Virus record (IMG/VR): IMGVR_UViG_3300042451_000642
Reading direction: 5' to 3' (one strand)
Length of the DNA stretch: 64,000 nucleotides
Source of the DNA: an uncultured virus (IMG/VR IMGVR_UViG_3300042451_000642)
Taxonomy: Duplodnaviria; Heunggongvirae; Uroviricota; Caudoviricetes
Part shown: positions 1-19,147 of the stretch, one piece after another
Numbering within the stretch: position 1 is the first letter of the stretch
Layout: each line of letters starts with the position of its first letter
Notes under the pieces: model-generated
Databases searched by the model: none
Seen by the model: only the letters and a program-made list of their open reading frames with translations
What the model was told of the DNA's origin: nothing
Translations under genes and position numbers: made by a program

Positions 1-1778
1 CTGTAACAATCACATTAGCAGATGCCACAACGGTTACAGCATCAGTACCAACTTTTAATCAAAACACAACTGGAACTGCTGCCAATATAACGGCAAGTTC
101 AAATACAAGTTTAACATCGTTAGCTAACTTAGCAACTGTAGGTACAATTACAACGGGTGTATGGAATGGAACAGCAATTGCAAATGCATATTTAGCAAAC
201 TCATCATTTAATATTGGTACAACGTCAATATCATTAGGTAGGGCGAGTGCATCACAGACATTAACTGGCGTTGCAATTGATGGAAATGCGGGAAGCGTAA
301 CAAATGGTGTTTATACAACAGGAGACCAAACTATAGGTGGAGCAAAAACATTTAGTTCAAATATAACTAATAGTGCTACTGCAGATTGGTACATGTATGG
401 ATTTGGGTCAAGAGGAGCTTCTTCAGGTCAATACGGAATGGGCCTCGCATCTGATATTGCAAATAGGACACTATCATTCCATATACCTAATCATACCGCT
501 TATTCATCTTCAGGTACCGTACCTAAATTTGGTTGGTACTCTAATGGGTCTGTTGAATTAATGTCATTACAAAGTGCCACTGGTAATTTAGTTGTTACAG
601 GAACAATTGGCGCATCTAATTTAAGCGGAACTAACACTGGAGATGAGACTATAACAAGAATTAACGCTTTGGCAATTACCACCGTTGGAACAATCACTTC
701 CGGTGTATGGAACGGTAGTTCAATTAGTACCACATACACTGACGCTAAAGTAACATCAATATCTGGAACTGCGAATCAAGTGATTGCTAGTTCATCAACA
801 GGAGCAATAACATTATCATTACCACAAAGTATACATACTACCGCAACACCAACATTTGGTGGTATGGTGTTATCAGGTGCAGGTACAGGTAATTCACCGG
901 TACTAAGAATAAACAATTCAACTGCCAGTTCTTTTATTCATTCATTGGAAGCTGTTGGTGCTAATATGACTGCTGGACAAACAAATATTATAGTTGTTGG
1001 TGCATCGGGTACCACTAAAAATAGTGGATATATTGGTTATAACTGGGCAGGTGCGGGTTCAAATAGTAACTATGTTAGTATTGGACACTGGGGTGCGGAT
1101 CATTTGTTAAGAGTATATGGTGATGGTACTGTTTACATGGGTACAGTAACAACCGGTACATGGCAAGGTTCCTCGATTAGTACCACATACACTGCAGCAA
1201 AAGTAACTGCAGTAAATGCGGGAACGGGTGTTGGTGTTGATACAACAACAGGTTCAGTTACCGTATCTATTGGACAATCGGTTGCAACATCGGCGGTACC
1301 AACATTTAAGGCTGCAATATTAACTAGTGACACAGATAGTCGGGTTTTAAAATTAAGAGAGTTGACCTCAACTAGTGGTAACATTATTCAATTTCAAGAC
1401 TCTGCAGGAAATAACAAATGGGAAATAGTTGGTAGATCTAATACAGATACAACGCCATTTTACATTTATAAAAATGATGGAACAAATACCGGGTATATAT
1501 TTTCAATTAGTGGAGGTGGTATACCAAATTTCCACACCGCATTAACTATCGGTGGAAGTACCGCTAAATCAATTTCAAACTCATCATATTCAACATCATT
1601 TAGTAGTGTATCATCAGTAACGGTTACACATAGTTTAGGAACAAAAGACGTGGCGGTATTTGTTTATGACAGTTCAGATAATATGTTCTGGCCATCGTCA
1701 ATTGTTACAACAAGTACAAGTGTTGTTACAATAACTTTTGCATCTTCTAGGTCAGGTAGGGTTGTAGTTGTAAGATAA
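1..1778 (+). CDS. Tail fibre protein, 5'-truncated by the window edge
   Basis: The frame of ORF 393..1778 is stop-free back to position 3. S/T/G-rich, with three GT(I/V)T(T/S)G(V/T)W(N/Q)G repeats and a C-terminal 'VTVTHSLGTKDVAVFVYD' fibre-type module. Confidence 0.8.
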   Translation, partial: VTITLADATTVTASVPTFNQNTTGTAANITASSNTSLTSLANLATVGTITTGVWNGTAIANAYLANSSFNIGTTSISLGRASASQTLTGVAIDGNAGSVTNGVYTTGDQTIGGAKTFSSNITNSATADWYMYGFGSRGASSGQYGMGLASDIANRTLSFHIPNHTAYSSSGTVPKFGWYSNGSVELMSLQSATGNLVVTGTIGASNLSGTNTGDETITRINALAITTVGTITSGVWNGSSISTTYTDAKVTSISGTANQVIASSSTGAITLSLPQSIHTTATPTFGGMVLSGAGTGNSPVLRINNSTASSFIHSLEAVGANMTAGQTNIIVVGASGTTKNSGYIGYNWAGAGSNSNYVSIGHWGADHLLRVYGDGTVYMGTVTTGTWQGSSISTTYTAAKVTAVNAGTGVGVDTTTGSVTVSIGQSVATSAVPTFKAAILTSDTDSRVLKLRELTSTSGNIIQFQDSAGNNKWEIVGRSNTDTTPFYIYKNDGTNTGYIFSISGGGIPNFHTALTIGGSTAKSISNSSYSTSFSSVSSVTVTHSLGTKDVAVFVYDSSDNMFWPSSIVTTSTSVVTITFASSRSGRVVVVR

Positions 1779-2955: not shown

Positions 2956-4062
2956 ATGCTACACGAAAATATTGAAATTAGTGGGTCCCTAAAAGCACAA
3001 GGCGTGATAAAATCACCAGTTGGGTCACGGGCAAATAGACCAGGTAGTCCACAAACAGGTTCTTTATATTTAGAACAAGCCACTAGTGGTAGTTTTTTAA
3101 TGGTTTATGTTGGATTAAGTAATAGTGATAGTGGATGGGTTAGAGTATCTTCTCAAGTAAATGCCAATGTTGGTTTTAAATTTAGACAGATAATTAGTGT
3201 TTCTTATCTTGCGGGTGGTTATAAAGATTCATCCCCTTGGAAAAATGTCCACAAAACAATTAATGCGACCGATCAGACAACACACATTGGTGAGTTATTA
3301 GATTTTGCTGCGTCGTATACATCTGGAGCTTGTAGTAAATATATTTTTTTTGTTTGGTCTGTCAATGAAGACAACGCTTTTAAGGGGCCAAGTGATGTTA
3401 ATGGTGTGAGAACATCTGCAATTAATATGGCAAACGATACCAAGTATGCACATCAAACCAAGTTTAATATTACCACTGCTAGAAGTGACTTGGGAACCAT
3501 GCATAAAGAAACAGAAATGGCATATATGTTTACCGGTGGTAGTGCCACTGTTGAAAGATTTGATTTAAGTACGGAAACAATAGCAACTGGTTTTAATTTA
3601 TCAACAATAAATGGTGGTGATGGTGGTTCAGCATTTTCTGATGAAAATTTTGGATACGGTTGGACATCTAGTGAAGGAATTAAAATGAGTTTTGCCACAG
3701 AAACATTTACATCATCTGGAATGTGGGGGGCACATTCACAACAGAAGGGAATAAGTTCTAAAGTTGGAAAAGGTTACGCCGGAAATGAGGGGTCTTATAA
3801 CGGCGGTTACAATCTTAGACGATGGAGCAACGCGAACGACACCAATCTCGGTAACGTAGCAAAACCACACCAAAACTGCGGAGAAGAAAATTTTACAATG
3901 GGACAAGATCACCAATATATGTTGGGTAATTATGATGGCGCTCAAAATAATACAAGTTGGAAATTTTATTACTCAACGGACACCGGGACGACCAGCGTAA
4001 GCGGTCTAGCCCCTGGCGTAAATGCGGGGACATCATCCGGACATTGTGGTTGGAGAGCATAA
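2956..4062 (+). CDS. Fibre-associated kelch/beta-propeller-like protein, paralogue 2
   Basis: Aligns end to end with the ORFs at 1798 and 4076; preceded by TATTTAT at 2944-2950. Confidence 0.65.
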   Translation: MLHENIEISGSLKAQGVIKSPVGSRANRPGSPQTGSLYLEQATSGSFLMVYVGLSNSDSGWVRVSSQVNANVGFKFRQIISVSYLAGGYKDSSPWKNVHKTINATDQTTHIGELLDFAASYTSGACSKYIFFVWSVNEDNAFKGPSDVNGVRTSAINMANDTKYAHQTKFNITTARSDLGTMHKETEMAYMFTGGSATVERFDLSTETIATGFNLSTINGGDGGSAFSDENFGYGWTSSEGIKMSFATETFTSSGMWGAHSQQKGISSKVGKGYAGNEGSYNGGYNLRRWSNANDTNLGNVAKPHQNCGEENFTMGQDHQYMLGNYDGAQNNTSWKFYYSTDTGTTSVSGLAPGVNAGTSSGHCGWRA

Positions 4063-4075: not shown

Positions 4076-5185
4076 ATGATATACGAGAATTTAGAAGTTA
4101 GTGGTAGTTTAACATCAGATAGAGTGGTGAATAGACCACCTAGAGGAACAAGAGCAAATAGAGTTGGTTCACCATTGTCTGGTTCATTATATTTGGAAGA
4201 ATCTACGAGCGGTAGTTTCTTAATGTTATATACTGGAGTATCAAATATTGATAACGGATGGGAGAGAATTGCGGCACAAGAAACCATTCCAATAGCATTT
4301 AAATATAGACAAGTTTTATCATATACCTATTTGGCTGGTGGATATAAAGATTCATCACCTTGGAGAAACGTTCATAAAACAACCAACTCAACAAGTCAAA
4401 CAACTCACGTTGGTGAATTATTAGATTATCCAGTATCTTATACATCGGGAGCATGTAATAAAACAATATTGTTTATTTGGTCAGTAAATGACGATGGAGC
4501 ATGGAAAGGGCCGGATAGTATTCATGGAACTCGGACATCGGCAATCAATATGTTTAATGATACAAACTATGCTCACCAAGCTAAATTTAATACAGGTATT
4601 GCTAGAAGTGACGTTGCTACCATGCAAAAGGAAACGGAATTTGCTTACTTAATATCAGGTGGATCAACCACTATTGAAAAATTTAATTTATCTAACGAAA
4701 GTTATGTAAGTGGATTTGGTGTAACGTCAATAAGTGGAACGGATGGTGCTGGTGCATTTTATGATGAAAGTTTTGGATATGCATGGACAACATCCGCAGG
4801 AATAAAATTTAATTTTTCCAACGAAACACCAAGTTCCTCAACACAATGGGGCGCACACGCACAACAAAAAGGTGTACCATCTAAAGTCGGTAAGGGATAT
4901 TGCGGTAACGAGGGATCATATAATGGTGGTTATAACCTAAGAAGGTGGAGTAACTCCACAGATACGAATCTTGGTAACGTAGCTAAACCACACCAAAACT
5001 GTGGAGAAGAAAACTTAGCATTAGGACAAGATTGGCAGTATATGTTAGGTAATTACGATGGAACGGGTCAAAATAACACTAGTTGGCAATTAATATATGC
5101 AACCGACACTGGATCAAATGCGGTTACCGGATTAGCTCCAGTGGTAAATGCCGGAACATCATCCGGACATTGTGGTTGGAGATAA
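4076..5185 (+). CDS. Fibre-associated kelch/beta-propeller-like protein, paralogue 3
   Basis: Same architecture; conserved YTSGAC, H(P/Q)NCGEEN and SSGHCGWR motifs. Confidence 0.65.
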   Translation: MIYENLEVSGSLTSDRVVNRPPRGTRANRVGSPLSGSLYLEESTSGSFLMLYTGVSNIDNGWERIAAQETIPIAFKYRQVLSYTYLAGGYKDSSPWRNVHKTTNSTSQTTHVGELLDYPVSYTSGACNKTILFIWSVNDDGAWKGPDSIHGTRTSAINMFNDTNYAHQAKFNTGIARSDVATMQKETEFAYLISGGSTTIEKFNLSNESYVSGFGVTSISGTDGAGAFYDESFGYAWTTSAGIKFNFSNETPSSSTQWGAHAQQKGVPSKVGKGYCGNEGSYNGGYNLRRWSNSTDTNLGNVAKPHQNCGEENLALGQDWQYMLGNYDGTGQNNTSWQLIYATDTGSNAVTGLAPVVNAGTSSGHCGWR

Positions 5186-5188
5186 CAT

Positions 5189-5217
5189 TTGACTTTATGA
5201 ATATTTTTCACTATATT
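5189..5217 (+). promoter_or_regulatory. sigma70-like promoter TTGACT-N17-TATATT
   Basis: Same geometry at 9442-9470 (TTGATT-N17-TATATT) and 11490-11518 (TTTACA-N17-TATATT), all intergenic. Confidence 0.5.
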
Positions 5218-5235
5218 GTATAAAAACAATTAATT

Positions 5236-6000
5236 ATGGAACAAGGTTACAAATACGACAGGTCTAATTTTATCAATAACCCATTTGATGAAAAACTAAT
5301 GCAAATATCTGAAAGCATGTCATTTGCATTACCGAAATATAAGGCATATAATTTCGTTGGGGGTGCACAAATAACTCCATATGCGAGATTAAAACAATGG
5401 TTATTGGAATTAAGAGGTAGAGAAGATGCTGTTGAACATTTGGAATATACAGTAAGAAAGGCCGAACTTGAAATTCAAATGGACGAAGAAAGTAAAGAAT
5501 TTATTACCGACACCAAAAGAAAAGAAATGGTTGATTTAACCATTGCAGATAAACGTATTGATTTAAGAAAATTTAATAGAAATCTTAAAGATGCGTATAG
5601 AGAAAGACAAGGGTTTATTGATTTAATTAAGGAATATTTGGAATCAGATGATGCCACCTTACCCGATGGTACCAAATTAATTGATGTTTTTGGTAATCCA
5701 AAATTGGAAGAAAAATATGAGCACGAATATTGGACTGTTCGTATGGCTAAACAAGCAATGTTGGATATGATTTCATATGGTAGAATTGGTACAGGTAACT
5801 TAGATTCAATTCTTATGATGGACCCTGAACAACAAAAACAAGTTTTAACTTTGGCTTCAGCATACACGATTTCTATTGATAAAAATATAAATCAATTAAT
5901 GTCACAAGCTACAACAGATAATTTCTCAATTGAAGAGTCGTTAAAGAATCAATTGAAATTAACAGAACCAAATAAAATAGAAACAGAAAAATTATTATAA
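5236..6000 (+). CDS. Hypothetical coiled-coil protein
   Basis: 254 aa, helical; stop overlaps the next start (TAATG). Confidence 0.7.
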   Translation: MEQGYKYDRSNFINNPFDEKLMQISESMSFALPKYKAYNFVGGAQITPYARLKQWLLELRGREDAVEHLEYTVRKAELEIQMDEESKEFITDTKRKEMVDLTIADKRIDLRKFNRNLKDAYRERQGFIDLIKEYLESDDATLPDGTKLIDVFGNPKLEEKYEHEYWTVRMAKQAMLDMISYGRIGTGNLDSILMMDPEQQKQVLTLASAYTISIDKNINQLMSQATTDNFSIEESLKNQLKLTEPNKIETEKLL

Positions 6001-6740
6001 TGACACATATTCTTTTTAAAGTACAAGGGAATGTTCCAGGTTATATACACGTAGTTGGAATGTATTTAAATTACAATTACGGTAGAATAGCTGATGAGTA
6101 TAACGACATGAGAGTTGAATTGAATAAACTTGGTGCAATAGTTATACCAGAAGAGGTTGCTAAAGGATTTGTTTTTGCTGACATATATAAAGATTATATT
6201 AGTGTTAGAACAAATTCAAATATCATGGATGAAATTCCACAGTTGGCGGAATCCAGTGAAACAGAAGCGGAAAAAGTAAAACACTTTCTTACTGACGAAG
6301 ACAAAGCGGCCGGCGTCGCGTTTAATAAAGCCGCGATGAGAAAAGTAGTTGCAGATAGATTTTCTGAAAGATACAAAGAGCTTATGGTTGATGCTTCTAT
6401 ACTGGAGAAAGACACTTGGGAAGAGCAAAAAAGAGAAGCGTTTGGTTGGACTGCTGATGAAGATTATCAAACACCAATCATTGATATTTTATGTGCCGGT
6501 AGAAATATTGAAAAATCAGTATTTGTACAAAAAATCATTAATAATGTAACAGCGTACAATACTAAACTGGCTAATCTATTATTAGAACAACAACTATTAG
6601 AAGAAAGAATTAAAGCGTGTGAAACTATTGCTGATTGTCACAGACTTAAGCATGAGAAGTTTGGCGTTGCAATGAGTAAGCAACAAAGGGAAGATGAGAA
6701 TATTGAAACAACACCTCTCACATTGAGAATGGACTTTTAA
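6000..6740 (+). CDS. Tail-fibre assembly/chaperone-like protein
   Basis: 'TWEEQKREAFGW..D..YQTPIIDILCAGRNIEK..VQKI' resembles phage fibre-assembly domains. Confidence 0.5.
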   Translation: MTHILFKVQGNVPGYIHVVGMYLNYNYGRIADEYNDMRVELNKLGAIVIPEEVAKGFVFADIYKDYISVRTNSNIMDEIPQLAESSETEAEKVKHFLTDEDKAAGVAFNKAAMRKVVADRFSERYKELMVDASILEKDTWEEQKREAFGWTADEDYQTPIIDILCAGRNIEKSVFVQKIINNVTAYNTKLANLLLEQQLLEERIKACETIADCHRLKHEKFGVAMSKQQREDENIETTPLTLRMDF

Positions 6741-6750
6741 ATAATTTTTA

Positions 6751-7752
6751 ATGAATTTAGCGATAAACGGAACGTGTGCTAAGGGATGTTCATTTTGTTT
6801 CACAAAAGAAGATGCAAGATTAAAACACACGTTAGGAGAAATGGATATAGAAATGGTCGATAAAATTATCGACCATTATCGTCTAAATAACTCTAATGAA
6901 GAAATCACCATACTCGGTGGTGAACCCACACAACACTCAAATTTTATTGGGATATTAGACCATATATTTTCTAAGGGATTTAAAGTAAATCTCGTTAGTA
7001 ACTTTTTATTTGGTAAAACAACCAGAGAATATATTGTAGACAATATAAAAAATATAAGATGGGTCTTCCCAAATGCTGCTGAACTCAATGAAAAAAATAG
7101 AATGGTTATTTTTAAAAAAAACTATCTAGAAATTTATAAGGCATATGCAAATACATGGGGATTCGACACTAACCCAAGATTATACTTGGCATTAACAATG
7201 TCCAGTGATTGGGAGAACAGAAACTTCTACGAATATATTAAGTGGTTATACCATGAATTAGATGGTAAAATAAATGCCATTAGATTAGGGTTAGACTTAA
7301 CCGGTACTTATCTCATCAACAATAAAGAGATGGGTGTCGAGATGACCAAAATACTTAAATTTGGACGTTATAATGAGATTAAAATAACTTCAGACTGTCA
7401 AGTTCCACCATGTCTTTGGGAGGGTAAAACAAAAGGTGCAGTAATGGAAAACTCATTAAATTTTGCCACATTCAAAATCCCTGAGTATGAAACCATATGT
7501 GGATTTATGCCGTTAGATATATTTCCCGACGGAAGTTCAATCCATTGTTATCCATTGGAAGATAAGGTAAAAATTAATAATGTTTTGGAAATATCAGGAA
7601 AAAATGGTATATTAGGGTTAAGAGAAGAATTTGATAAACTTTATATTAATAATCATAAAAATTATTCAATCCCACAAGATTGTTTAGATTGTGTTTTCTA
7701 TAAAACAGAATGTAATGGAATATGTGGAGGTTGTATGGAAGGTAACAAATGA
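6751..7752 (+). CDS. Radical SAM protein with SPASM-like C-terminal domain
   Basis: CAKGCSFC (CxxxCxxC), GGEPT, C-terminal CLDC..ECNGICGGC. Confidence 0.9.
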   Translation: MNLAINGTCAKGCSFCFTKEDARLKHTLGEMDIEMVDKIIDHYRLNNSNEEITILGGEPTQHSNFIGILDHIFSKGFKVNLVSNFLFGKTTREYIVDNIKNIRWVFPNAAELNEKNRMVIFKKNYLEIYKAYANTWGFDTNPRLYLALTMSSDWENRNFYEYIKWLYHELDGKINAIRLGLDLTGTYLINNKEMGVEMTKILKFGRYNEIKITSDCQVPPCLWEGKTKGAVMENSLNFATFKIPEYETICGFMPLDIFPDGSSIHCYPLEDKVKINNVLEISGKNGILGLREEFDKLYINNHKNYSIPQDCLDCVFYKTECNGICGGCMEGNK

Positions 7753-8789
7753 CAAAGAAAATATTTTCAATACCGTTTAATCCGATGTTGACAGAGGATA
7801 TGTTTGTAAATAAGTTTTATCCATTCTTAGAAAGAAATAAAGATTGGATTTATGACATTTATTTTACATGTAGAATACCACCATTCACTCAGGATGCGAT
7901 GGGTGCCGTGTTTAGAGAAGAAGACAGAGATGTTATATTTGAAAACGCAATGATAATACAAAGGGCTTTAGGTATTAAAATAAGTGCAACATTCAATAAT
8001 GTTAATGTCTCACCCAAGTATGAAAATTACAAATTGTTTGTTGACAATTTAAAACCATTATATGAAAAAGGTTTAAGGTGTATAACTATTCCGCATGGTC
8101 ATTGGGTTGCAATGGGGTTGAAGAAACATTTTCCCGATATGGAAATTAAAAATACCATATTAAGAAAGGTTGCAACGGGACAAGACTTTTGGTACAATGC
8201 CGATCAAGGATTTGATTACATTAATCTTGATAGAATTTTAATGAGGGATGTTGAAGAATTAAAAAATATCAAGAGAGCACAATTAAAATATCAAGAAGAG
8301 AAAGGTAGATATGTAAAACTATCTTTACTTGTTAACGAAGGTTGTTTAGGTAGGTGTCCTGTAATGGATGAACACTATTCATATAACAATCTTAGACAAC
8401 CTAATGAACTACCATATTTTCATCATGAGATATCTAAGGTGACATGCGAATACAAATGGGAAAAAGAAATAAATGCTTTCTTTTTTAAGGCGGCAACGAT
8501 ACCACCATTCAAAGAAGAGTTCGATGAATTATTGGGGTACATTGATGTATTCAAAATGCATGGTAGAGATAGTTTCAATAGACTAGATGAAACAATTGAA
8601 ATTGTTGAGTCGTATGTTGCAAATAGTGAAGTACTCTCCAAGACCTCTGAAACATATTTGGATGGTATACCATATGATGAATTGAAGGGATGGAGAAATA
8701 AAATAAAGAAATGTAAATTCCAATGTTGGGATTGTAATTATTGCGACATAGTTGCTGACCATAAAAAGAAATCTCATGGACTTAATTAA
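7749..8789 (+). CDS. Peptidase U32-family Fe-S protein (probable hydroxylase-type)
   Basis: LLVNEGCLGRCP...H, FKMHGRD and a C-terminal CKFQCWDCNYC cluster. Confidence 0.7.
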   Translation: MTKKIFSIPFNPMLTEDMFVNKFYPFLERNKDWIYDIYFTCRIPPFTQDAMGAVFREEDRDVIFENAMIIQRALGIKISATFNNVNVSPKYENYKLFVDNLKPLYEKGLRCITIPHGHWVAMGLKKHFPDMEIKNTILRKVATGQDFWYNADQGFDYINLDRILMRDVEELKNIKRAQLKYQEEKGRYVKLSLLVNEGCLGRCPVMDEHYSYNNLRQPNELPYFHHEISKVTCEYKWEKEINAFFFKAATIPPFKEEFDELLGYIDVFKMHGRDSFNRLDETIEIVESYVANSEVLSKTSETYLDGIPYDELKGWRNKIKKCKFQCWDCNYCDIVADHKKKSHGLN

Positions 8790-9441
8790 ACACATTGACG
8801 ACTCCATTGAATGGGGTAAACTTGAGGTATCTAAATTAAATCAAGACATTCTTGATATCCACGGAATAACAAGTAATAAAGTTAAATGTTTTCTCAATAA
8901 CATTTGTAATGTTGATAATGCCACATATCTTGAATTAGGTGTTTTTAGAGGTGCAACTTTTTGTTCCGCAGTCCACGGTAATGACATTTACTCAATAGGT
9001 ATTGATAACTTTATGTCTCCTAACTTAACACCAAAAGGAGTGAGTCAAAAAATTGGCAACTATTATAAACATAATATTGATATACCACCACAAGAAGAAT
9101 TCTTATCGAATGTTAAAAGACATTGTAATGTCAATAAAACATCCATATACAAAACTGATTATCAAACCTTTGATTTTAAAACATTACCAAATGTTGATAT
9201 CATTTTTTATGATGGAGAAACAAAATTCCATGACCAATACGTTGCATTAACAAACATGTTACCAATATTTTCTAAAGAAACTATAGTCATTATGGATGAT
9301 TGGAATTGGAATAGTGGTGCCTTTGAAAAGTTTGTTAGTGATAATAACTTATTTATTAGCCATTATAGGGAATTATATACATCAGGTGAAGACTCCGAAG
9401 ATTTTTGGAATGGTCTTGGAATATTTTTAATTGAAAGGTAG
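8776..9441 (+). CDS. Class I SAM-dependent methyltransferase (Methyltransf_24-like)
   Basis: YLELGVFRGAT, IDNF, IIFYDG, IMDDW motifs; ATG at 8776 overlaps the upstream gene end. Confidence 0.8.
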   Translation: MDLIKHIDDSIEWGKLEVSKLNQDILDIHGITSNKVKCFLNNICNVDNATYLELGVFRGATFCSAVHGNDIYSIGIDNFMSPNLTPKGVSQKIGNYYKHNIDIPPQEEFLSNVKRHCNVNKTSIYKTDYQTFDFKTLPNVDIIFYDGETKFHDQYVALTNMLPIFSKETIVIMDDWNWNSGAFEKFVSDNNLFISHYRELYTSGEDSEDFWNGLGIFLIER

Positions 9442-9484
9442 TTGATTATCTGATATTTTTTGTTTATATTATAATATATTGTAA

Positions 9485-9574
9485 GGGGAGGTGGGTGAGT
9501 GGTTTAAACCGACAGCCTCCGAAGCTGCTATTGGACTTAACATTCAATCGAGAGTCCGAATCTCTTCCTCCCCG
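9485..9574 (+). tRNA. Class II (Ser-type body) tRNA with anticodon CCG
   Basis: Acceptor GGGGAGG/CCTCCCC; D arm GGTGAGTGGTTTAAACC; anticodon arm ACAGC-CTCCGAA-GCTGC; variable arm ATTGGA-CTTAACA-TTCAAT; T arm GAGAG-TCCGAAT-CTCTT; discriminator G; CCA not encoded (CAA follows). Confidence 0.9.
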
Positions 9575-9607
9575 CAATTTTATAAACTTTTCTTAAACAA
9601 AAAACAG

Positions 9608-10492
9608 ATGAGAAAAACAATTACAATGCTATCGATAATGTTAGCACTATTGTTTACTACCACTATGTCATTTGGACAATATAGTAGTAGTGCAATTCAG
9701 AAAGGTTCGGAACAATCCTTAAAAGTTCAAACGGACACAGTCCCTAATCAATTACAAGAAATTGTTGTTACATCAAAGAAAGTCCCATTAATGACCAACG
9801 TAGGTCCTTATGGTCAACCACTTTGGACAACAATGAGAATGTTTGCATCCACTAGAGTTTATGTGATGAATCCACCAGGTACTGCAATGTACGAGAAGTG
9901 GTTTGACATCAGACAAAGAAGAAACGGACCCGCACAAATTAGAATGAGAGATGAATTCACATTCGGTTTAGGTAAGAGACTTCAATTAGACTTTTATTCT
10001 CACACAGTTTATGATGGTGAAAATGGTGACAAGGAATTCAAATGGAGAGGATTCTCTTGGGAGTTCCGTTACGCTCTTGCCGATTGGGGTAAAGTGTGGG
10101 GTAACCCCACATTGTATTGGGAAACTAAAATGTTAGATGGTCGTTGGGGTATCGAACCAAAATTATTATTAGGTGATAGAATTGGTAAGAGTGGTATTTG
10201 GGGATTTAATGCAATTTACGAGGGTAACTTAGCTGGAACCAAAGAAGAACAAGAAAGAGAATACGCATACACCGCTTCGTATGGTAATATCATCAACAAT
10301 GATTTAACATTAGGTGTGTCACATATGTTTAGATATAACGATTATGAGGGAGGTTTTCAAGAATGGTATATTGGACCACTTGTACAATATCGTTTCAATA
10401 ACAAAGCATATTTAAACATTGAACACATGCCAGGTATTAATCAAGATGCAAAACAATCAAGAACCACAATTATATTTGCATGGAGATTTTAA
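9608..10492 (+). CDS. Secreted outer-membrane beta-barrel protein
   Basis: Signal peptide MRKTITMLSIMLALLFTTTMSFG, TonB-box-like LQEIVVT, aromatic amphipathic strands, C-terminal IFAWRF. The track's 9491 start lies inside the tRNA and is rejected. Confidence 0.7.
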   Translation: MRKTITMLSIMLALLFTTTMSFGQYSSSAIQKGSEQSLKVQTDTVPNQLQEIVVTSKKVPLMTNVGPYGQPLWTTMRMFASTRVYVMNPPGTAMYEKWFDIRQRRNGPAQIRMRDEFTFGLGKRLQLDFYSHTVYDGENGDKEFKWRGFSWEFRYALADWGKVWGNPTLYWETKMLDGRWGIEPKLLLGDRIGKSGIWGFNAIYEGNLAGTKEEQEREYAYTASYGNIINNDLTLGVSHMFRYNDYEGGFQEWYIGPLVQYRFNNKAYLNIEHMPGINQDAKQSRTTIIFAWRF

Positions 10493-11538: not shown

Positions 11539-12009
11539 ATGGAAAAAATTACGTTAAAATTGGGAGACGTTCTACAATTAGAAAGTGAAATAAACGGATA
11601 TATTGAACCACAAACCGGAGAACAAGTGTTTGAGGGATTCAGTAAACAAAACCTATCAATCATTTTGAAATATGAATTGAGTGACTTCTCAACAGAACTT
11701 AAAGGTGAGAGAACTAAGGTTGAAGCATTAAGAGATGAATTAATCAAAAAATATGGTGAAGAAGATGGTAAGGGTGGTGTCTTAGTTAAAATGTATAATG
11801 AATTGAAAGATGAGGAGGGTAACGTAACTGGTAAAGTTATTAACCCACAATACATCGAATTTGATAATGAATATGGTGTACTTTTAAATCAAGAAATTGA
11901 AATCGAATACCCTGAAATTACCAAAGAAGATTTAAAGGATGCGGGTAAAACGAAAGACAAATATCAGGTCTTATTTAAATTAATCAAAAAAGAAAAAGGG
12001 ACTTTATAG
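11539..12009 (+). CDS. Hypothetical acidic phage protein
   Basis: 156-aa ORF with its own promoter-like site at 11490-11518. Confidence 0.7.
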   Translation: MEKITLKLGDVLQLESEINGYIEPQTGEQVFEGFSKQNLSIILKYELSDFSTELKGERTKVEALRDELIKKYGEEDGKGGVLVKMYNELKDEEGNVTGKVINPQYIEFDNEYGVLLNQEIEIEYPEITKEDLKDAGKTKDKYQVLFKLIKKEKGTL

Positions 12010-12020
12010 TCCCTTTTTTT
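11993..12020. terminator. Bidirectional intrinsic terminator
   Basis: AAAAAGGGACT-TTAT-AGTCCCTTTTT between convergent genes. Confidence 0.8.
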
Positions 12021-12852
12021 TATACTCATCTATGTAATCATATAGATTTACGATTGGTATCCAATTTAAAATTAATCTAGATAATGTACTTTCACATAAA
12101 GTTTCTTGAGCTTCTCCTGGTTTATCTTCCATATAAACTCTATCTTTTTTAAACATATCGGCAACCTCATTTAGAGAAAAATTTTGACCCCTACCCAATT
12201 CAAATGTGTGTCCCCACGATTCCTTATCACATATCTTAATTAATGCGTTAACAATATCATCAATATGGGTGAAATCTCTTCTTTTAGAACCATCACCATA
12301 TATTGTTAAAGGTTCATTATCATCATATTGTTTTTCCCACCTACCGATAACCGTACTATAACCACCATCCCTTAAATGATGTGGACCATATACGTTATAA
12401 AAACGAGTTATGGATGACTTTAAACCAAAATGTTCCTGATAAAGTTTAACAATCTCCTCACCAATATCTTTACTAAATGTGTACGGATTTTTAAACTTAC
12501 CACTATGATGTGAACTACTTCCAGCATAAATTAATGGTATATCATTCTTAACACAATATTGTACCATGTTCAATGTACCATTTGTATTTGTTTCAAAATA
12601 TTCAATTGGATGTTTAAATGATGGTTGTATTCTTGCAATTGCGGCTAAATGAAACACAATATCATATTTCACGTTGTCTAGTATGTTTAGATTTCTAACA
12701 TCACCACATATGTAATTTGCACCATCTTGGTGATTAGAACTAAAACCACTTAAGTAGTTATCTAACGATGTCACATCGTGACCATCTTTTAATAGTCTTT
12801 TAATTAAATTGGTACCTACGAATCCAGCACCACCAGTTACCAGTATATTCAT
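12004..12852 (-). CDS. NAD-dependent epimerase/dehydratase
   Basis: TGGAGFVG, HLAA, YTFSK (YxxxK), RFYNVYGP. Confidence 0.9.
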   Translation of the reverse strand: MNILVTGGAGFVGTNLIKRLLKDGHDVTSLDNYLSGFSSNHQDGANYICGDVRNLNILDNVKYDIVFHLAAIARIQPSFKHPIEYFETNTNGTLNMVQYCVKNDIPLIYAGSSSHHSGKFKNPYTFSKDIGEEIVKLYQEHFGLKSSITRFYNVYGPHHLRDGGYSTVIGRWEKQYDDNEPLTIYGDGSKRRDFTHIDDIVNALIKICDKESWGHTFELGRGQNFSLNEVADMFKKDRVYMEDKPGEAQETLCESTLSRLILNWIPIVNLYDYIDEYKKKGL

Positions 12853-13961
12853 TATATTGTTTTTTTAATAACTATCATCATACTCCCAATTTGGTACTCA
12901 CCTGGTTCATAGTAAGGTATTGATAACCTTATTTTATGTAAAGTTCTAATATCATCATCTGTGAATTGTTCAACTTCAGTAATCATCACGTCAACCGTAT
13001 CTGTAAGGGTAAATTTCGATCTTAAATCGTATCGTGTATTCTTTTGTTCATTTTCAATATAAGTCTCAGGAATCTCTCCTAAATCGATTTTATCGAAGAA
13101 TGGTTCTACCTCCATTAATCTATTTCTATTACGGGTAGTTAAACCCATATTAAAAGTCTTATATGTAAAGTTATCTTCTTCCCAATATCTAAGTTCATTA
13201 AATGCTGAGATTGGTATACCCCACTTTCTAACAAAGTTTCTATTGGATGAAACCTCATATAACATTCTATCTTTTTTATAGTCATCACTAAATCTTGATG
13301 TCTGCGAAACAAAATGATAGGTGATTGCAGAATCACATGTTTTTAAATTATAACCTTTTAGTTTCGCACGGATTAAGAAATCATCATCCTCACAAAATGC
13401 GGGTACGAAACTGAAACCATCAAACCCACCAATATCGTCGAACATCTTTTTAAATCCTGACATAAAGAACACGGCACCATTGTATAAGTTCTTACTATCT
13501 TTCCATTGGTCCACATAAGCATTAAAATTATATTGGTCAAAGTTATCAAACCCCGAACCCAAATCTAATAATACTTTACCTGCTCTTTGGTGACCTCTAA
13601 AAATTGGAGGTTCAATTGTTGTATAGGATAATAATGTATTTGGATTCTCATCTAATAATCTATCTAAGTTCTCTAAAAACTGTTCACCAATTACCATATC
13701 GTTGTGAATCAACACGAGTTTTTCAGTATCAACAAGTTTGATTGCTGCATTATATGTTTCAGAAAATGTTAATCTATCATCATCATGAATAAAAGAAAGA
13801 TTCTTATCTTCCAATGACCCCAACCATTCTTTGGTTCCATCATATGAACCACCGCTACTAATCACCAAAGCTGCTGTTGGGTATATATCACGTAAACGAT
13901 TATAACATTCTATTGTTAAATCTAATTTATTATAAACCGCTAATACAAATGTTATATTCAT
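12852..13961 (-). CDS. Glycosyltransferase family 2
   Basis: GT-A N-terminus, HNDM, GGFD..F..EDDD. Confidence 0.8.
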   Translation of the reverse strand: MNITFVLAVYNKLDLTIECYNRLRDIYPTAALVISSGGSYDGTKEWLGSLEDKNLSFIHDDDRLTFSETYNAAIKLVDTEKLVLIHNDMVIGEQFLENLDRLLDENPNTLLSYTTIEPPIFRGHQRAGKVLLDLGSGFDNFDQYNFNAYVDQWKDSKNLYNGAVFFMSGFKKMFDDIGGFDGFSFVPAFCEDDDFLIRAKLKGYNLKTCDSAITYHFVSQTSRFSDDYKKDRMLYEVSSNRNFVRKWGIPISAFNELRYWEEDNFTYKTFNMGLTTRNRNRLMEVEPFFDKIDLGEIPETYIENEQKNTRYDLRSKFTLTDTVDVMITEVEQFTDDDIRTLHKIRLSIPYYEPGEYQIGSMMIVIKKTI

Positions 13962-14929
13962 TATTTTTCAATTTGTTCTTTAATCCAAGAAAATGTTTTC
14001 GTCAAACCGTCATATAATGAATTTGACGGTGACCAATTTAATTTATCTTTAATTAATTTATTATCACTATTTCTACCTCTCACACCAGTTGGTCCTGTTA
14101 TATTTTTAATATAAACCATTTTACCACTAATGTCAATAATCCATTGAGCCAATTCATTTATTGAAATCATTTCATCACTACCGATGTTAACCGGTCCAAT
14201 AAATTCCGAATCCATTAAACGACGCACTCCCTCTAAACATTCGTCAATATATAAAAACGAACGAGTTTGTTTTCCATCACCCCATATTTCTATTTCACCA
14301 CCATCAATCGATTCCACAACTTTTCTACATAACGCTGCTGGTGCTTTTTCTTTACCACCATCATAAGTTCCATATGGACCAAATATATTATGAAATCTAG
14401 CAATTCTAATATCTAAACCATAATTTTTATGATATGACATATAAAGACGTTCACTAAATAACTTCTCCCAACCATATTCTGAGTCGGGATTTGCTGGATA
14501 AGCTGAAGATTCTTCACAATTAGGATTATTTGGGTCTAATTGATTATGTTCAGGATAAACACATGCTGATGATGAGAAGAATATTTTTTTAACTCCAGTC
14601 TTTAATGCGGAATCTAAAACATTTAAATTTATCATTGCGGAATTATGCATAATTTTTGCATCATTATCGCCAGTAAAAATGTAACCAGCACCACCCATAT
14701 CCGCAGCCAATTGATAAACCTCATCAAATGAACCTTCTGGTAATGACATAACATCAAATACAAAATTAGGGTCCGTTAAGTCACCTTGAAACCACTCTGA
14801 ATTAAATTTAGTAAAAAAGGCATGTCTTTTAATATCCACATTACGAACAAAGTGACCCTCATCGGTTAATTTCTTTGATAGGTTGCCACCGATAAAACCA
14901 CACCCACCAAGGATTAAAATTTTTTTCAT
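13961..14929 (-). CDS. NAD-dependent epimerase (GDP-mannose 3,5-epimerase-like)
   Basis: GGCGFIG, LAADMGG, YGWEKLFSE, KAPAALCRK. Confidence 0.85.
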   Translation of the reverse strand: MKKILILGGCGFIGGNLSKKLTDEGHFVRNVDIKRHAFFTKFNSEWFQGDLTDPNFVFDVMSLPEGSFDEVYQLAADMGGAGYIFTGDNDAKIMHNSAMINLNVLDSALKTGVKKIFFSSSACVYPEHNQLDPNNPNCEESSAYPANPDSEYGWEKLFSERLYMSYHKNYGLDIRIARFHNIFGPYGTYDGGKEKAPAALCRKVVESIDGGEIEIWGDGKQTRSFLYIDECLEGVRRLMDSEFIGPVNIGSDEMISINELAQWIIDISGKMVYIKNITGPTGVRGRNSDNKLIKDKLNWSPSNSLYDGLTKTFSWIKEQIEK

Positions 14930-16017
14930 TTATTTATTTCTGTTTTAATAAAATTTAATGCAGATTCAATTACCTGATGCATATCATAGTACTTGTATTC
15001 GGCCAATCTACCGCCAAAATGTATATTCTTTAACTTATTCGATTCTATTTTATATTTTTGATAAATCTCATTATTATCCATATCGTTAACTGGATAATAT
15101 GGTTCAGTTTCATTCACCTTATATTGAGTAGGATATTCATAAGTTACCCAAGTGTGATTAGTAATATTTTCTTTTTCAAAATGTTTATGTTCAATAACAC
15201 GAGTGTGTTGTGTTTTTGAATCTGTGTAGTTTATGACAGAACAACCTTGGTAATTATCCATATCCTTTTTAAAGTGTTCGAAACGGGTTGTTTTATATTC
15301 CAACTCACCAAATTTGTAATTAAAAAACTTATCTATTGGTCCCGTGTAAATTACACGATTATGTTCAGGTAATTTATCTGTAAAATAATTAGTGTTAAGT
15401 TTAACCTCAATACCATCTAATAACTTTTCAAAAATTTGGGTGTATCCACCGATAGGTATACCTTGATACTTGTCATTGAAATAATTATTATCATATGTGA
15501 ACCTAACTGGTAATCTTTTAATAATTTCTTTTGGTAGTTCGTTGCAAGGTTTTCTCCATTGTTTTTCGGTATAACCTTTGATTAATTTTTCATAGACATC
15601 TTTACCAACTAACTTAATTGCTTGATTTTCCAAATTATTTGGATTATCAATTTCTTTTGATTGAGAATCAATAACATCTTTAGCCTCTTTAGGTGTTGTT
15701 ACATTCCATAGTTTATTAAATGTCCACATGTTAAACGGTAACGAATATAATTCACCTTCATAATTGGCAACAGGATTATATCTGAAATTGTTAAATTCAA
15801 CATATTGGTTAATCCATTTCCACACATCTTCATTTGATGTATGAAATATGTGTGGACCGTAGGTGTGAATGTTTATACCGTCTCTATTTTCTGTGTGACA
15901 ATTACCACCAATATGATTACGAGATTCAATAACTAAAACTTTTTTACCCGACTTAGTTAATTCATGCGCACATATGGACCCATATAATCCAGCACCTACA
16001 ATCAGATAATCGTACAT
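14926..16017 (-). CDS. glf: UDP-galactopyranose mutase
   Basis: IVGAGLYG, HIGGNC, YGPHIFHT, YFNDKYQGIP, GRLAEYKYYDM. Confidence 0.95.
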   Translation of the reverse strand: MYDYLIVGAGLYGSICAHELTKSGKKVLVIESRNHIGGNCHTENRDGINIHTYGPHIFHTSNEDVWKWINQYVEFNNFRYNPVANYEGELYSLPFNMWTFNKLWNVTTPKEAKDVIDSQSKEIDNPNNLENQAIKLVGKDVYEKLIKGYTEKQWRKPCNELPKEIIKRLPVRFTYDNNYFNDKYQGIPIGGYTQIFEKLLDGIEVKLNTNYFTDKLPEHNRVIYTGPIDKFFNYKFGELEYKTTRFEHFKKDMDNYQGCSVINYTDSKTQHTRVIEHKHFEKENITNHTWVTYEYPTQYKVNETEPYYPVNDMDNNEIYQKYKIESNKLKNIHFGGRLAEYKYYDMHQVIESALNFIKTEINK

Positions 16018-16772
16018 TACCACTTATGTTTAAAGAGTACCAACTTATTTTCAAAATAAACATTACCATTACCATCTTGTTTTGTTCCAATAGGACTTGG
16101 GTAATGTGTGTGGTTATGAATATCGTATGGCATTTCTATTACGTTATATTCTGATTTGGTATTAATTATAAATGAAATTAACCATTGTTGTTTTGCATAG
16201 TGTTTAAACATTTTATCAACTAAAGGATATAATGGGATGTAATCGTTTGCCAATTTCTGCCAAGTTTTTTTATTCATAGCAATTAAACCGGTGTTATAAA
16301 CCTTAACCTTTCTCCAATTAACATCAAAAAATTCGGGATACATTGTTCCATTATAACCTAATCTTGGAGCTTCATCATATAACGTATCTGTTGGTGATGC
16401 GTTATAACCTATATAAACATCACCATCTTTAAAGTTGGAATACATTTCCCTTTCTTCGTCAGTAATATTTCTTTGTAGATACATGTCCCCATCAGTATAA
16501 AAAATAACGTCATCATCATTAAATTTATCAAAATATTGTGCGAAAATAAACTCGCCATGCTGTGTACAATTTATTGGACTTAATGCTTTAATTTTTGATG
16601 GGTCCTGCTTGGCAATTGATATTTTTGAAGTGTTTATACTGAAATCTTCATTACTTAATAGAACTAAGACATTTTCATCAAAGTTTGAATTCATTTCTAA
16701 TGACCCTAAATAAGGTTCTATTTTTTTTAAATAGTTAAAATCGGAACCTGTTGCTAAAATTAATTTATTCAT
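16017..16772 (-). CDS. Putative glycosyltransferase (DxD-type)
   Basis: FYTDGD, YNTGL motifs; located inside the sugar cluster. Confidence 0.55.
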   Translation of the reverse strand: MNKLILATGSDFNYLKKIEPYLGSLEMNSNFDENVLVLLSNEDFSINTSKISIAKQDPSKIKALSPINCTQHGEFIFAQYFDKFNDDDVIFYTDGDMYLQRNITDEEREMYSNFKDGDVYIGYNASPTDTLYDEAPRLGYNGTMYPEFFDVNWRKVKVYNTGLIAMNKKTWQKLANDYIPLYPLVDKMFKHYAKQQWLISFIINTKSEYNVIEMPYDIHNHTHYPSPIGTKQDGNGNVYFENKLVLFKHKW

Positions 16773-16827
16773 TTTCTTTTGTCAAGTCTAATTTATTATA
16801 TACTGCTAATACAAATGTTATATTCAT
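16765..16827 (-). pseudogene. 20-codon relic of the 5' end of the GT2 gene that starts at 13961
   Basis: Encodes MNITFVLAVYNKLDLTKENE*, versus MNITFVLAVYNKLDLTIECY for the intact gene. Confidence 0.8.
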
Positions 16828-17441
16828 TAATTTTTAATAAAATTTTCTCTATGTCTTCTATAATATAGAAGACCTTTTTTGACCCATTCCATTTTAGCAC
16901 CAGCACGCTTAAACCCATTATAAAGAAATAAATCTTCTTGTGAATGAATCCCACCAGTTGCTTGGTAACCAATTGATTGGGCTAATTTAGTGTTGTACAT
17001 CATCGATCCATGATGTCTTTGAAATCTAGACCAATACAAGTCACCTTGGTATGGTGTCATCTCAGGGCCGTGCCTATTTAATAATCCTCTTTTAGAATCT
17101 CCAGTCACAACAATATCATATGTTACAACATCAGCATTTACTTTATCTAATATCTCTAATGTATCTGCTCTCAACCAGTTATCTGCACCTAAAAACATAC
17201 ATTTATCGGTTGTCACTCTCATCAACATATCCTGAAAATTTGCAACAGTACCCATGTTTTTTTCCCTCAACACATATTCAACTTCAGGATATATTTTTGG
17301 TAGGTGACCACAATCACCAACACCGTCATCTACAAATAAAATCTTATCAGGTTTTCTCGATTGACATAAAACACTTTCAATACAATGTGCGGCTAAATGT
17401 CCATATTGATATGAAGCAATCACAACTGTTATAGTACTCAT
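16827..17441 (-). CDS. Glycosyltransferase family 2
   Basis: VVIASY, VDDG, FLGADN, EDL motifs. Confidence 0.8.
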   Translation of the reverse strand: MSTITVVIASYQYGHLAAHCIESVLCQSRKPDKILFVDDGVGDCGHLPKIYPEVEYVLREKNMGTVANFQDMLMRVTTDKCMFLGADNWLRADTLEILDKVNADVVTYDIVVTGDSKRGLLNRHGPEMTPYQGDLYWSRFQRHHGSMMYNTKLAQSIGYQATGGIHSQEDLFLYNGFKRAGAKMEWVKKGLLYYRRHRENFIKN

Positions 17442-18172
17442 GGTATATGGTTTACATTAATATTACGAATTATTTCACCATTTTTCAAGTAATCAGGATA
17501 TGTTTTTGTTGATTTTGACCTACAGAATCCATTCATATATGTCATTCTATCTTTCTTTGATTGATTTGGCTCACTACCATGAACAGATAAAACTGACCAT
17601 ATCAAAACATCACCTTTATTTGCGGTATATTTCTTACCACTTAAGTCACCTCTTTTAAATTCTCGTAAATTATTTGGAAGCGGAATCCTCATTGTCTTAT
17701 GTGAACCATCAATAAACTCAATTGCACCATTGTCCTCTGTTATTTCATCAACGGCAATTATTGTTTGGAAATAATCATCCTCTACATCGTTATTGAAATT
17801 TATATCCTCTCTAAACATAACGTCTTGATGCCACGCAAATTGATCTTGGTCACCACTTTCTCTAAAATAAATTTGATTATTTATTTGTTTAACATCATCA
17901 CCAATAAAATTTTTAACCAAATTAATCATCCTTTCATCCGTTCTAATTTTATTCAGATATTCGTTAACAAGTGACGGAAAAAAAACTAACAATCTTTTAT
18001 CATTTTTCTTTTCACTTGGTACGTGTGGATAACCACTTTTTTTAATATCCTCATCTCTCACAGAATAAGCATTCTTTTTAATTTCGTCACACTCTTCTGA
18101 CGTAAAAACATTTGACATAACTATAATACCTTTTTCGTTATATTCTTTCTTAAGTTGTTCAAAATCAATCAT
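17438..18172 (-). CDS. PhyH-family 2OG-Fe(II) dioxygenase
   Basis: WHQD, NGAIEFIDGSHK, GDVLIW..VHGS..N..R. Confidence 0.85.
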   Translation of the reverse strand: MIDFEQLKKEYNEKGIIVMSNVFTSEECDEIKKNAYSVRDEDIKKSGYPHVPSEKKNDKRLLVFFPSLVNEYLNKIRTDERMINLVKNFIGDDVKQINNQIYFRESGDQDQFAWHQDVMFREDINFNNDVEDDYFQTIIAVDEITEDNGAIEFIDGSHKTMRIPLPNNLREFKRGDLSGKKYTANKGDVLIWSVLSVHGSEPNQSKKDRMTYMNGFCRSKSTKTYPDYLKNGEIIRNINVNHIP

Positions 18173-18681
18173 AGGTATGGTCTATATATTTTATAATTAT
18201 GGTCTTTATCTTGTGGATTTCTTGACCCCTGCGTTACGCTCCACGCTTTTTCATAACCCATTTCCTTTACACACTCAATTGCTAAATCATTGAATTTACC
18301 ATATGGATATGCAAAATATTTCATTGGAAATGGTGGAGTTATTTCTTTTATAATTTCATCTTTTTTCAGTAACGTTAAATCCGGATGACTCCAAGTGTGC
18401 CAACCAATTTCAAAATCATATTCATCACACATTTCATTTATTTGTTCCCATGTACAATATTTTTCTAGTTTTGGAACATATTGTAAATCAAAATAATTGT
18501 CACCACCAATAAAATTACCCATGACAAAAAATATTCCGGTTTTATTTTTTAAAATGTCTTTATTTTCATAAACATTTAAATAAATCCCATCAAAACCAAG
18601 AGGTTCATTTGAGTTTAATACTTGTTCTCTTGTGTGGTAATTAGAATGTCTAATGTTACCGATATTATGTAGTAGTCTCAT
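18169..18681 (-). CDS. Polysaccharide deacetylase (NodB-like)
   Basis: FDG, EIGWHTWSHPDL, FAYPYG. Confidence 0.8.
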   Translation of the reverse strand: MRLLHNIGNIRHSNYHTREQVLNSNEPLGFDGIYLNVYENKDILKNKTGIFFVMGNFIGGDNYFDLQYVPKLEKYCTWEQINEMCDEYDFEIGWHTWSHPDLTLLKKDEIIKEITPPFPMKYFAYPYGKFNDLAIECVKEMGYEKAWSVTQGSRNPQDKDHNYKIYRPYL

Positions 18682-19138: not shown

Positions 19139-19147
19139 TATATATAA

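Follow-up and report, generated by a model that had tools for sequence, protein, structure and literature searches.

The tRNA-Ser(CAG) of Candida and the nev-tRNAs of nematodes are transfer RNAs (tRNAs) with class II bodies and foreign anticodons, whose body-directed charging leads to ambiguous decoding. The bldA tRNA-Leu(UAA) of Streptomyces is dedicated to a very rare codon confined to a restricted set of genes and gates their expression. According to the available text of Mukai et al. (2017; PMC5389517), bacterial allo-tRNAs resemble tRNA-Ser or tRNA-Sec, mostly carry non-serine anticodons, including arginine ones (GCG, and readers of AGA and AGG), and were proposed as possible missense suppressors. 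In the available sections of Shulgina and Eddy (2021; PMC8629427), the alignment columns of reassigned CGG codons in low-GC bacteria show Trp or Gln. Here we describe a tRNA gene at positions 9485–9575 (plus strand) of a 64,000-nucleotide (nt) stretch of DNA, hereafter the window, from an uncultured virus of the Caudoviricetes (IMG/VR record IMGVR_UViG_3300042451_000642). This gene joins a serine-type, class II body to the arginine anticodon CCG, and its presence among related phages tracks the use of CGG in linked tail-fibre genes. Counting delivery of arginine and delivery of serine together, we think that the tRNA probably decodes CGG for these genes.

The gene was the single tRNA found by ARAGORN in the window, which labelled it tRNA-Arg(ccg) with the anticodon at position 35. 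When the region 9400–9660 was scanned alone, it matched the Rfam tRNA model RF00005 over its full length (model positions 1–71) with 50 bits (cut-off 29, E 4e-10). A scan of the whole window (1–64000) at the Rfam gathering threshold returned nothing, the tRNA included; a long-armed tRNA can be lost to the fast filters of such a scan. The parts of the gene that matter below are the following.

9485–9575, plus strand: class II tRNA gene (long variable arm) with anticodon CCG, 91 nt; called by ARAGORN and by RF00005 (50 bits), with 24 + 25 + 10 related records.
9519–9521, plus strand: anticodon CCG, in the loop CTCCGAA at 9517–9523; the same in all nine distinct variants.
9529–9549, plus strand: variable region T-ATTGGA-CTTAACA-TTCAAT-C, 21 nt, with a 6-base-pair (bp) stem ATTGGA/TTCAAT and a 7-nt loop.
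9555–9561, plus strand: T loop TCCGAAT, with C at position 55 (9556) where U is usual; the same in all variants.

Read from the sequence, the acceptor stem is GGGGAGG/CCTCCCC. The acceptor and T stems have the canonical 7/5 lengths, and position 8 (T) lies opposite T65, so that there is no eighth pair. The D arm is GGTG-AGTGGTTTA-AACC, with G13.A22 and U20, that is, T rather than A after G18G19, and the anticodon arm is ACAGC-CTCCGAA-GCTGC, with an A27.C43 mismatch and A37. The variable stem is AU-rich and weak; its loop is the most variable part of the family, and the variable region spans 21–23 nt across variants. In the T arm (GAGAG-TCCGAAT-CTCTT), the loop differs from those of all other class II tRNAs compared, which were TTCGAAT, TTCAAAT, TTCAAGT or TTCGAGT. 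The discriminator is G73, at 9574, and CCA is not encoded, the next letters being GCAA. Every structural trait given in the initial annotation of this locus (class II cloverleaf, 6-bp variable stem, G73, G13.A22, no A20, A37, C55 and A27.C43) was present.

A covariance model (R1) was built from the nine tRNA variants and used for reciprocal search. In five Bacteroidota genomes, all 11 of its best matches (54–75 bits) were tRNA-Ser; the next match had 37 bits, and no tRNA-Arg was found. In 151 Flavobacteriales genomes, the best 30 matches (77–84 bits) were all tRNA-Ser(GCT); many of them shared the D stem GGTG/AACC and had an almost identical D loop, and the anticodon stem was almost identical in some. 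A metagenome tRNA-Ser(GCT) lying inside a tRNA array (L420) was identical to variant C of the phage tRNA over positions 8–44 except at bases 34 and 36. The exclusive matching of R1 to tRNA-Ser and the identity with L420 show that the tRNA descends from a tRNA-Ser(GCU) of Flavobacteriales type through two anticodon changes, G34>C and U36>G. Two other metagenome relatives, L416:103-190(-) and L419:143-230(+), share the D arm and anticodon stem and have the anticodon ACT, that of a tRNA-Ser with A34. Bacteria seldom have a tRNA-Ser with A34. With GCT, ACT and CCG all found, this family seems to have a labile position 34.

In the available text of PMC9976931, serine identity depends on the variable arm with the anticodon ignored, G73 with G1-C72 and G2-C71 is the rule for serine tRNAs, and A20 is the main determinant for arginyl-tRNA synthetase (ArgRS). 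Among the hallmarks of a tRNA-Ser, the phage tRNA has a variable stem of about 5–7 bp, G73 with G1-C72 and G2-C71, and tRNA-Ser as its nearest relatives; it does not have a serine anticodon (NGA or GCU), with CCG found in every copy. Among those of a tRNA-Arg, it has C35 with G36 and a codon located at arginine positions in proteins, and it lacks both A20 (T follows G18G19) and a class I body, its variable region being 21 nt long. A was found at position 20 in all eight canonical Bacteroidota tRNA-Arg(CCG) and in both tRNA-Arg of the tRNA array of a related phage contig. A body of serine type beneath an arginine anticodon, as initially proposed, was thus borne out by the covariance-model matches, all to tRNA-Ser, and by the CCG. 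No domain of seryl-tRNA synthetase (SerRS) or ArgRS was found in five related contigs, all of which are fragments.

The tRNA is real and appears to be kept under structural constraint. Its exact 45-nt 5ʹ half, including CCG, was present in 24 IMG/VR contigs, and the same 24 contigs and no other anticodon were returned when the anticodon was wild-carded. A synteny search through the upstream methyltransferase gene gave 80 loci, of which seven end before the tRNA site and were excluded; in the 73 evaluable loci, the tRNA was present in 25, always with ccg, and absent from 48. Ten further ccg copies were obtained from a metagenome scan. The anticodon read in the initial annotation therefore recurs in every copy from related phages (24 contigs, 25 loci and 10 metagenome records), and the normal serine anticodon that it had envisaged at the locus in relatives occurred in none of those searched. 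Two main lineages, 84% identical to each other, account for the nine distinct variants. Neither the anticodon loop of 7 nt nor the T loop changed over variants differing at 15 other positions, two pairs were changed on both sides (30-40, G-C to A-U; 52-62, A-U to G-C), and the A27.C43 mismatch was repaired to A-U or G.U in other variants. Over these nine variants, which represent two main lineages only, 95.7% of cells were paired in the cloverleaf and two pairs were double-changed, and an alternative fold, described below, fits at least as well. A blastn search of the tRNA against GenBank phages gave no match among cultured phages, and the exact 26-mer of the acceptor and D arm had 0 matches in 185,579 bacterial species genomes.

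An assembly error or a decaying tRNA-Ser pseudogene has a negligible probability. In its favor are the A27.C43 mismatch, C55, the weak, AU-rich variable stem and odd changes in two low-coverage copies (L117 and L126). Against it stand the identical anticodon in independent assemblies and in contigs from RNA libraries, the compensatory substitutions in the stems and the lack of a copy with a serine anticodon at the locus in any relative. As far as sequence can tell, error and pseudogene are refuted.

CGG was the rarest sense codon, accounting for 9 of 19,378 codons in the window and 19 of 77,934 in a related 251-kb contig (G002). Upstream of the tRNA lies a 16-kb module composed of a long fibre gene, three phrog_1417 paralogues and five enzyme genes. 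The following genes of the window concern us here.

3–1778, plus strand: 3ʹ part of the long tail-fibre gene, with CGG at 1341–1343.
2956–4062, plus strand: fibre-tip paralogue 2 (phrog_1417); CGG at 3028–3030 is codon 25, in the motif P-x-G-x-R-A-N-R-P.
4076–5185, plus strand: fibre-tip paralogue 3 (phrog_1417); CGG at 4532–4534 is codon 153.
6751–9441, plus strand: upstream enzyme genes, namely radical SAM (6751–7752), a 346-amino-acid (aa) protein (phrog_1458; 7749–8789) and methyltransferase (8752–9441).

In all 12 contigs that bear the tRNA, the fibre gene and paralogues together contained two to seven CGG codons each, with a sum of 58 in ~33,300 codons; in all 16 contigs without the tRNA, there were 0 CGG in ~48,000 codons. 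Bearers did not differ from non-bearers in their usage of other rare, GC-rich codons (CGC, CGA, CTG and CCC). CGG occupied at least 12 distinct sites in the fibre and tip genes, differing by lineage, and no DNA motif was seen around them. The gene trees (paralogue 2, paralogue 3 and the 346-aa gene) show bearers interleaved with non-bearers; by parsimony, four to six changes of tRNA state were needed, and well-supported branches force one to three. The tRNA and the codons that it reads co-travel as one recombining module. It is because tRNA presence tracks CGG in the linked fibre genes, the strongest new fact of this study, that we take decoding for these genes as the probable function. The codons that track the tRNA being in the phage's own fibre genes, the initial suggestion of a mistranslating tRNA aimed at host genes was not upheld.

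The residues at these sites are arginine-like. Opposite CGG, the orthologues in non-bearers (all module genes, 604 pairs) had R in 60.3%, K in 10.8%, A in 7.3%, Y in 6.1% and Q in 5.1% of cases, and Ser in less than the 1.5% of the least frequent residue tabulated; for comparison, the partners of AGA were R in 83.9%, those of CGT and CGA together, which CGG resembles, R in 65.9%, and those of Ser codons, from which CGG is distinct, S in 70.0%. When the majority residue was taken for each context, the log10 likelihood ratio of an Arg-like over a Ser-like codon was +24.9 over 23 contexts, or ~13 sites. Nearly all CGG sites have AGA in the closest non-bearers. Ten of the 12 bearers and none of the 16 non-bearers have CGG as codon 25 of paralogue 2 (window 3028), the non-bearers having AGA (seven), AAG (four), AAA (two), and one each of CGA, AGG and CCG; the residues of this column in 121 family rows were R in 93, K in 20, and A, V and S in two each. 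At least five CGG sites are invariant or nearly invariant Arg in non-bearers (e.g., TKN-R-VDS in 39/39 and GDY-R-TGI in 40/40), and at a single site of the fibre, CGG and AGT (Ser) alternate in three bearers. Since no Ser codon lies one step from CGG, little can be learned from close relatives by themselves; AGA to AGY is one step, yet Ser is almost never found at CGG sites in relatives. By their alignments, CGG sites appear to behave as arginine sites, which agrees with the earlier view that CGG still means Arg in this phage and speaks against the incipient reassignment to Ser also considered there, Ser making up less than 1.5% of partners. The paralogue alignment on which that view had relied stood for the codon at 3028, which faces AGA in both paralogues, and held for only one paralogue at 4532, where the other has TGG. 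A rapid switching of AGA to CGG was considered and rejected: the closest fibres of bearers and non-bearers are 77–87% identical, with ~40% of the identical residues on other codons, so that there was ample time for two-step changes.

Tentatively, we favor a functional elongator tRNA that serves the phage's own late tail-fibre genes by reading CGG, leaning toward the delivery of arginine. Such a tRNA would make CGG usable in the fibre and tip genes, tight linkage would keep codon and reader together despite the frequent recombination of the module, and C35 with G36 would have shifted its identity to ArgRS, whereby arginine would be delivered. We lean toward arginine because AGA was ancestral at the CGG sites, several of which fall on invariant Arg/Lys positions, and reading CGG as Ser gains nothing over the AGY codons. 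The Ser-to-Arg identity shift, biochemically unorthodox, is putative and unproven: as to charging, the architecture and the published identity rules point to Ser and the codon record to Arg.

Several points weigh against this arginine elongator. The tRNA lacks the ArgRS determinant A20; a class I body and A20 occur together in each of the eight canonical tRNA-Arg(CCG) found in Bacteroidota. The native tRNA-Ser(GCU) already has C35, along with U36, and is presumably no Arg acceptor; in yeast, according to the available text of PMC6125640, a tRNA-Ser given Arg anticodons is a serine mistranslator. C55, together with a predicted fold more stable than the cloverleaf, may impair tRNA function. Some contigs are near-copies (G004/G166, G005/G169, G170/G177 and G173/G174), and for the association of tRNA and CGG the trees allow only about four to six independent contrasts, all in the same direction. 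Genome-wide CGG was not raised in bearers (0.25–0.68 per 1000 versus 0.12–0.35, the latter from two non-bearers with 0.12 and 0.35), and a distant contig without the tRNA (G008) has CGG in other fibre-like genes outside the module. Moreover, the five enzyme genes of the module (5236–9441 and orthologues) had nine CGG in the 16 non-bearers and 0 true CGG in the 12 bearers, two bearer codons in a probable start-codon overcall being left aside; this pattern, with p ~0.01 in a post hoc count, is opposite to what an Arg-tRNA predicts.

The same enzyme-gene contrast (0 versus 9), set against CGG in the fast-evolving fibre genes, is best accounted for by a serylated missense tRNA, a rather unlikely reading on the whole, in which SerRS charges the tRNA and Ser, either wholly or mixed with Arg from a host tRNA-Arg(CCG), is inserted at about a dozen CGG positions in fibre and tip proteins, with a tolerated or useful Arg/Ser heterogeneity of receptor-binding proteins as its consequence. 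All architectural tests and identity rules give Ser, and the alternation of CGG with AGT (Ser) at one fibre site in three bearers fits as well. There is also precedent: in the available texts, allo-tRNAs with non-serine anticodons are possible missense suppressors (PMC5389517), and an engineered tS-R(CCG) was tolerated because CGG is rare (PMC6125640). This is opposed by the Arg-like nature of the CGG sites, where Ser almost never appears in relatives although AGA to AGY is a single step, by the at least five sites with invariant or nearly invariant Arg in non-bearers, by the codon-25 motif, with R or K in 113 of 121 family rows, and by the AGY codons, which would give Ser without a special tRNA. 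The more specific proposal, that the serylated tRNA competes with a host Arg-tRNA at CGG so as to make a deliberate Arg/Ser mixture at a dozen or so chosen positions in the proteins of the tail fibre and tip, is more doubtful still. The opposite case, a tRNA with little or no decoding role, is also fairly improbable. The RNA would be a passenger, or would serve another purpose, such as an element for processing or stability at the start (5ʹ) of the downstream messenger RNA (mRNA), possibly in an alternative fold, and the CGG pattern would reflect the host range of fibre modules, the hosts reading CGG well; codon usage could follow the host because fibre modules determine host range. The tRNA is indeed flanked by a conserved upstream motif and by the next gene's leader, with RNA-library contigs spanning both, at an insertion hotspot where two loci (L133 and L134) have an open reading frame (ORF) of ~110 codons, and its C55 is unusual and invariant. 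Furthermore, the predicted minimum-free-energy fold is not the cloverleaf (−31.1 versus −26.1 kcal/mol for the window copy and −33.2 versus −21.4 for variant C). In the alternative fold, the T arm would pair through its 5ʹ half, C55 and C56 included, with the 5ʹ strand of the variable stem, and the T stem through its 3ʹ strand with the 5ʹ strand of the D arm. All family substitutions are compatible with it; it pairs 99.6% of cells, compared with 95.7% for the cloverleaf, and has a covarying pair of its own (columns 53-71), in a comparison biased because the alternative fold was derived from one of the compared sequences. Other class II tRNAs mostly fold into their own cloverleaf in the same test. 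Against such a non-decoding element, the penalty of variant A for keeping the acceptor and T stems was 1.3 kcal/mol, inside the span of 0–2.2 obtained for ordinary class II tRNAs; the variants differ at 15 other positions and yet all have the same 7-nt anticodon loop; and the anticodon matches exactly the one codon that differs in use, whereas a harmless "parked" anticodon predicts fewer CGG in bearers.

Very improbable, finally, is a decoy or replacement against a host defence that cleaves tRNAs, either an anticodon nuclease acting on tRNA-Arg(CCG), as initially suggested, or a nuclease acting on class II variable loops. In G002, a T4 Rnl1-type RNA ligase gene adjoins that of a kinase-like AAA_33 protein, and we take the two to be a tRNA repair pair. 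The variable loop is the most variable part of the tRNA, and Septu cleaves the variable loop of tRNA-Tyr, as stated in the available text of PMC13096335. Yet the CUCCGAA loop is unlike the Bacteroidota tRNA-Arg(CCG) loops UUCCGGU and UUCCGAU, variable loops vary freely in any class II tRNA, and the CGG codons of the linked genes would be left unexplained.

Either outcome of charging would be informative. If arginine is delivered, a long-armed tRNA without A20 would be accepted by ArgRS and escape SerRS, a natural Ser-to-Arg identity switch; if serine, a virus would keep a missense tRNA aimed at its own receptor-binding proteins; and if a mixture, translation itself would diversify the receptor-binding proteins, through a portable "codon plus tRNA" module that moves together with the fibre genes. 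The usual link between tRNA shape and amino acid is perhaps broken here. Word searches of the open-access literature found no phage-encoded class II tRNA with an arginine anticodon and no natural Ser-to-Arg switch, which is not proof of absence. The locus would offer a simple, testable picture of how a rare codon becomes privatised, and the codon/tRNA pair may be of use as a natural one in Bacteroidota engineering.

The window is part of a T4-like jumbo phage with 32.6% GC, and its DNA occurs in lake-water metagenomes. In the related contig G002, estimated by CheckV to be 75% complete, T4-type genes for portal, terminase, gp32, sheath and baseplate are accompanied by a ribosomal protein S21 gene, the Rnl1-type ligase, SprB repeats, glycosyltransferases and many radical SAM/SPASM genes. 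Its array of 21–22 tRNAs, which includes Ser(gct), Ser(tga), Arg(tct) and Arg(acg), contains no reader of CGG, the sole Arg codon that Arg-ACG and Arg-UCU cannot read; the ccg tRNA is solitary and lies 200 kb from this array. The cultured relatives of the neighbouring 346-aa gene are from cyanomyoviruses (~45% identity). The phage host is probably a member of the Bacteroidota, as the initial annotation had assumed, because Shine-Dalgarno motifs are scarce (just 5 of 159 genes), an A-rich peak lies at −13 to −11, SprB repeats are present, and the tRNA has relatives in Flavobacteriales. The UDP-galactopyranose mutase gene was uninformative as to host, with 54–61% identity over many phyla, and pattern surveys for canonical tRNA-Arg(CCG) in Flavobacteriales were too noisy to tell which genomes lack one.

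The surroundings of the insertion are given by two features.

9456–9471, plus strand: conserved AT-rich motif TTTTTTGTTTATATTA, immediately before the site of insertion; most of the tRNA-less relatives shown have it unchanged or in a similar form.
9577–10492, plus strand: leader (AATTTTATAAACTTTTCTTAAAC...) and downstream gene (ATG at 9608; 294 aa; N terminus resembling a signal peptide); RNA-library contigs extend over this stretch and the tRNA.

In relatives without the tRNA, the intergenic region is ~100 nt shorter, and TTTTTTGTTTATATTA, exact or nearly so, abuts almost directly the leader AATAAACTTTTCTTAAAC of the next gene, which shows that the tRNA was inserted cleanly between the two, as a ~100-nt insertion behind the tail-fibre cassette. 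The motif at 9456–9471 may be a promoter; sigma-70-like matches at 9431–9459 and 9442–9470 were no more than in shuffled sequence. Contigs from four riverine RNA libraries run from 9425, 9485, 9502 or 9525 into the downstream gene, with none over 9000–9424 and no differing letters inside the tRNA. As these are assembled contigs, from which ends, CCA tails and expression levels are not readable, and because DNA carry-over cannot be excluded, they give a weak hint that the tRNA region is transcribed. At the same intergenic site, tRNA-less loci L133:4690-5060 and L134:4690-5060 contain an ORF of ~110 codons instead, and the site is an insertion hotspot. The gene that follows the tRNA in the tRNA-bearing loci L109–L112, L127 and L129 (~4857–6630, locus coordinates) has its first ~44 codons in common with the 294-aa gene; the rest is different and longer (~1.7 kb). 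Upstream, the radical SAM and methyltransferase labels of the initial annotation were confirmed, and its assignment of the 346-aa protein to U32 was not (Pfam at E<=1, phmmer against PDB, and NCBIfam). Relatives of this protein occur in 126 cultured phage records, and the radical SAM/346-aa/methyltransferase cassette is without the tRNA in 48 of the 73 evaluable loci. Because the cassette is so widespread without the tRNA, the idea that the latter serves as donor or substrate for these enzymes is unsupported.

Other observations concern the wider genome. At 35675–36408, the window encodes Fe-S assembly proteins, one IscU-like (NifU_N, E 1e-50) and one IscA-like, which fits the many radical SAM genes of the phage. 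The region 12004–25613 (minus strand) encodes a long series of sugar-nucleotide epimerases, UDP-galactopyranose mutase, glycosyltransferases, a PhyH-type dioxygenase and a polysaccharide deacetylase, and a 95-aa ORF at 22249–22536 has a short gp23-like match. In G002 (L186, L191 and L192), there are genes for S21, ClpB-like, ClpP, Hsp20, a sigma-70 factor, NusG-like, histone H1-like Hc1 and the Rnl1-type RNA ligase by the kinase-like protein. A weak tRNA-like gene is located at G002:C1:50496-50565 (L075 6496-6565, minus strand; RF00005 29.7 bits, no ARAGORN call); by eye, its loop reads TTTGCAA (anticodon TGC, Ala), its D arm is shortened and CCA is encoded.

We then return to the known systems. 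Candida tRNA-Ser(CAG) and the nev-tRNAs are cellular, have genome-wide effects and were shown experimentally to be charged as described, whereas the phage tRNA is known from sequence alone. Unlike bldA, a normal tRNA-Leu, the phage tRNA has a body and an anticodon that disagree and is physically linked to its client genes. With canonical Bacteroidota tRNA-Arg(CCG), it has in common the anticodon, and A37 also occurs in copies from small-genome Flavobacteriales (loop TTCCGAT). However, the canonical tRNAs in eight genomes are class I, 73–75 nt long, with A20 after G18G19 and a normal TTC T loop, whereas the phage tRNA is 91 nt long, with a 21-nt variable region, U20 and C55. As far as the available text of PMC5389517 allows the comparison, a Ser-type body with a mismatched Arg anticodon is shared with allo-tRNAs, for which that text has 0 occurrences of CCG or CGG. 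Unlike allo-tRNAs, whose acceptor/T stems are 8/4 or 9/3, the phage tRNA is 7/5, phage-borne, marked by C55 and tied to the codon use of linked genes. The bacterial cases of CGG reassignment, as covered by the available sections of PMC8629427, resemble this locus in their low GC (0.32 here), in having CGG among the rarest codons, and in a tRNA(CCG) with identity features of another amino acid; there too, CGU, CGC and CGA are served by an inosine tRNA, leaving CGG with a dedicated tRNA(CCG). In contrast to those cases, the CGG columns here are Arg-like, the tRNA is viral, and the codon is concentrated in one gene module.

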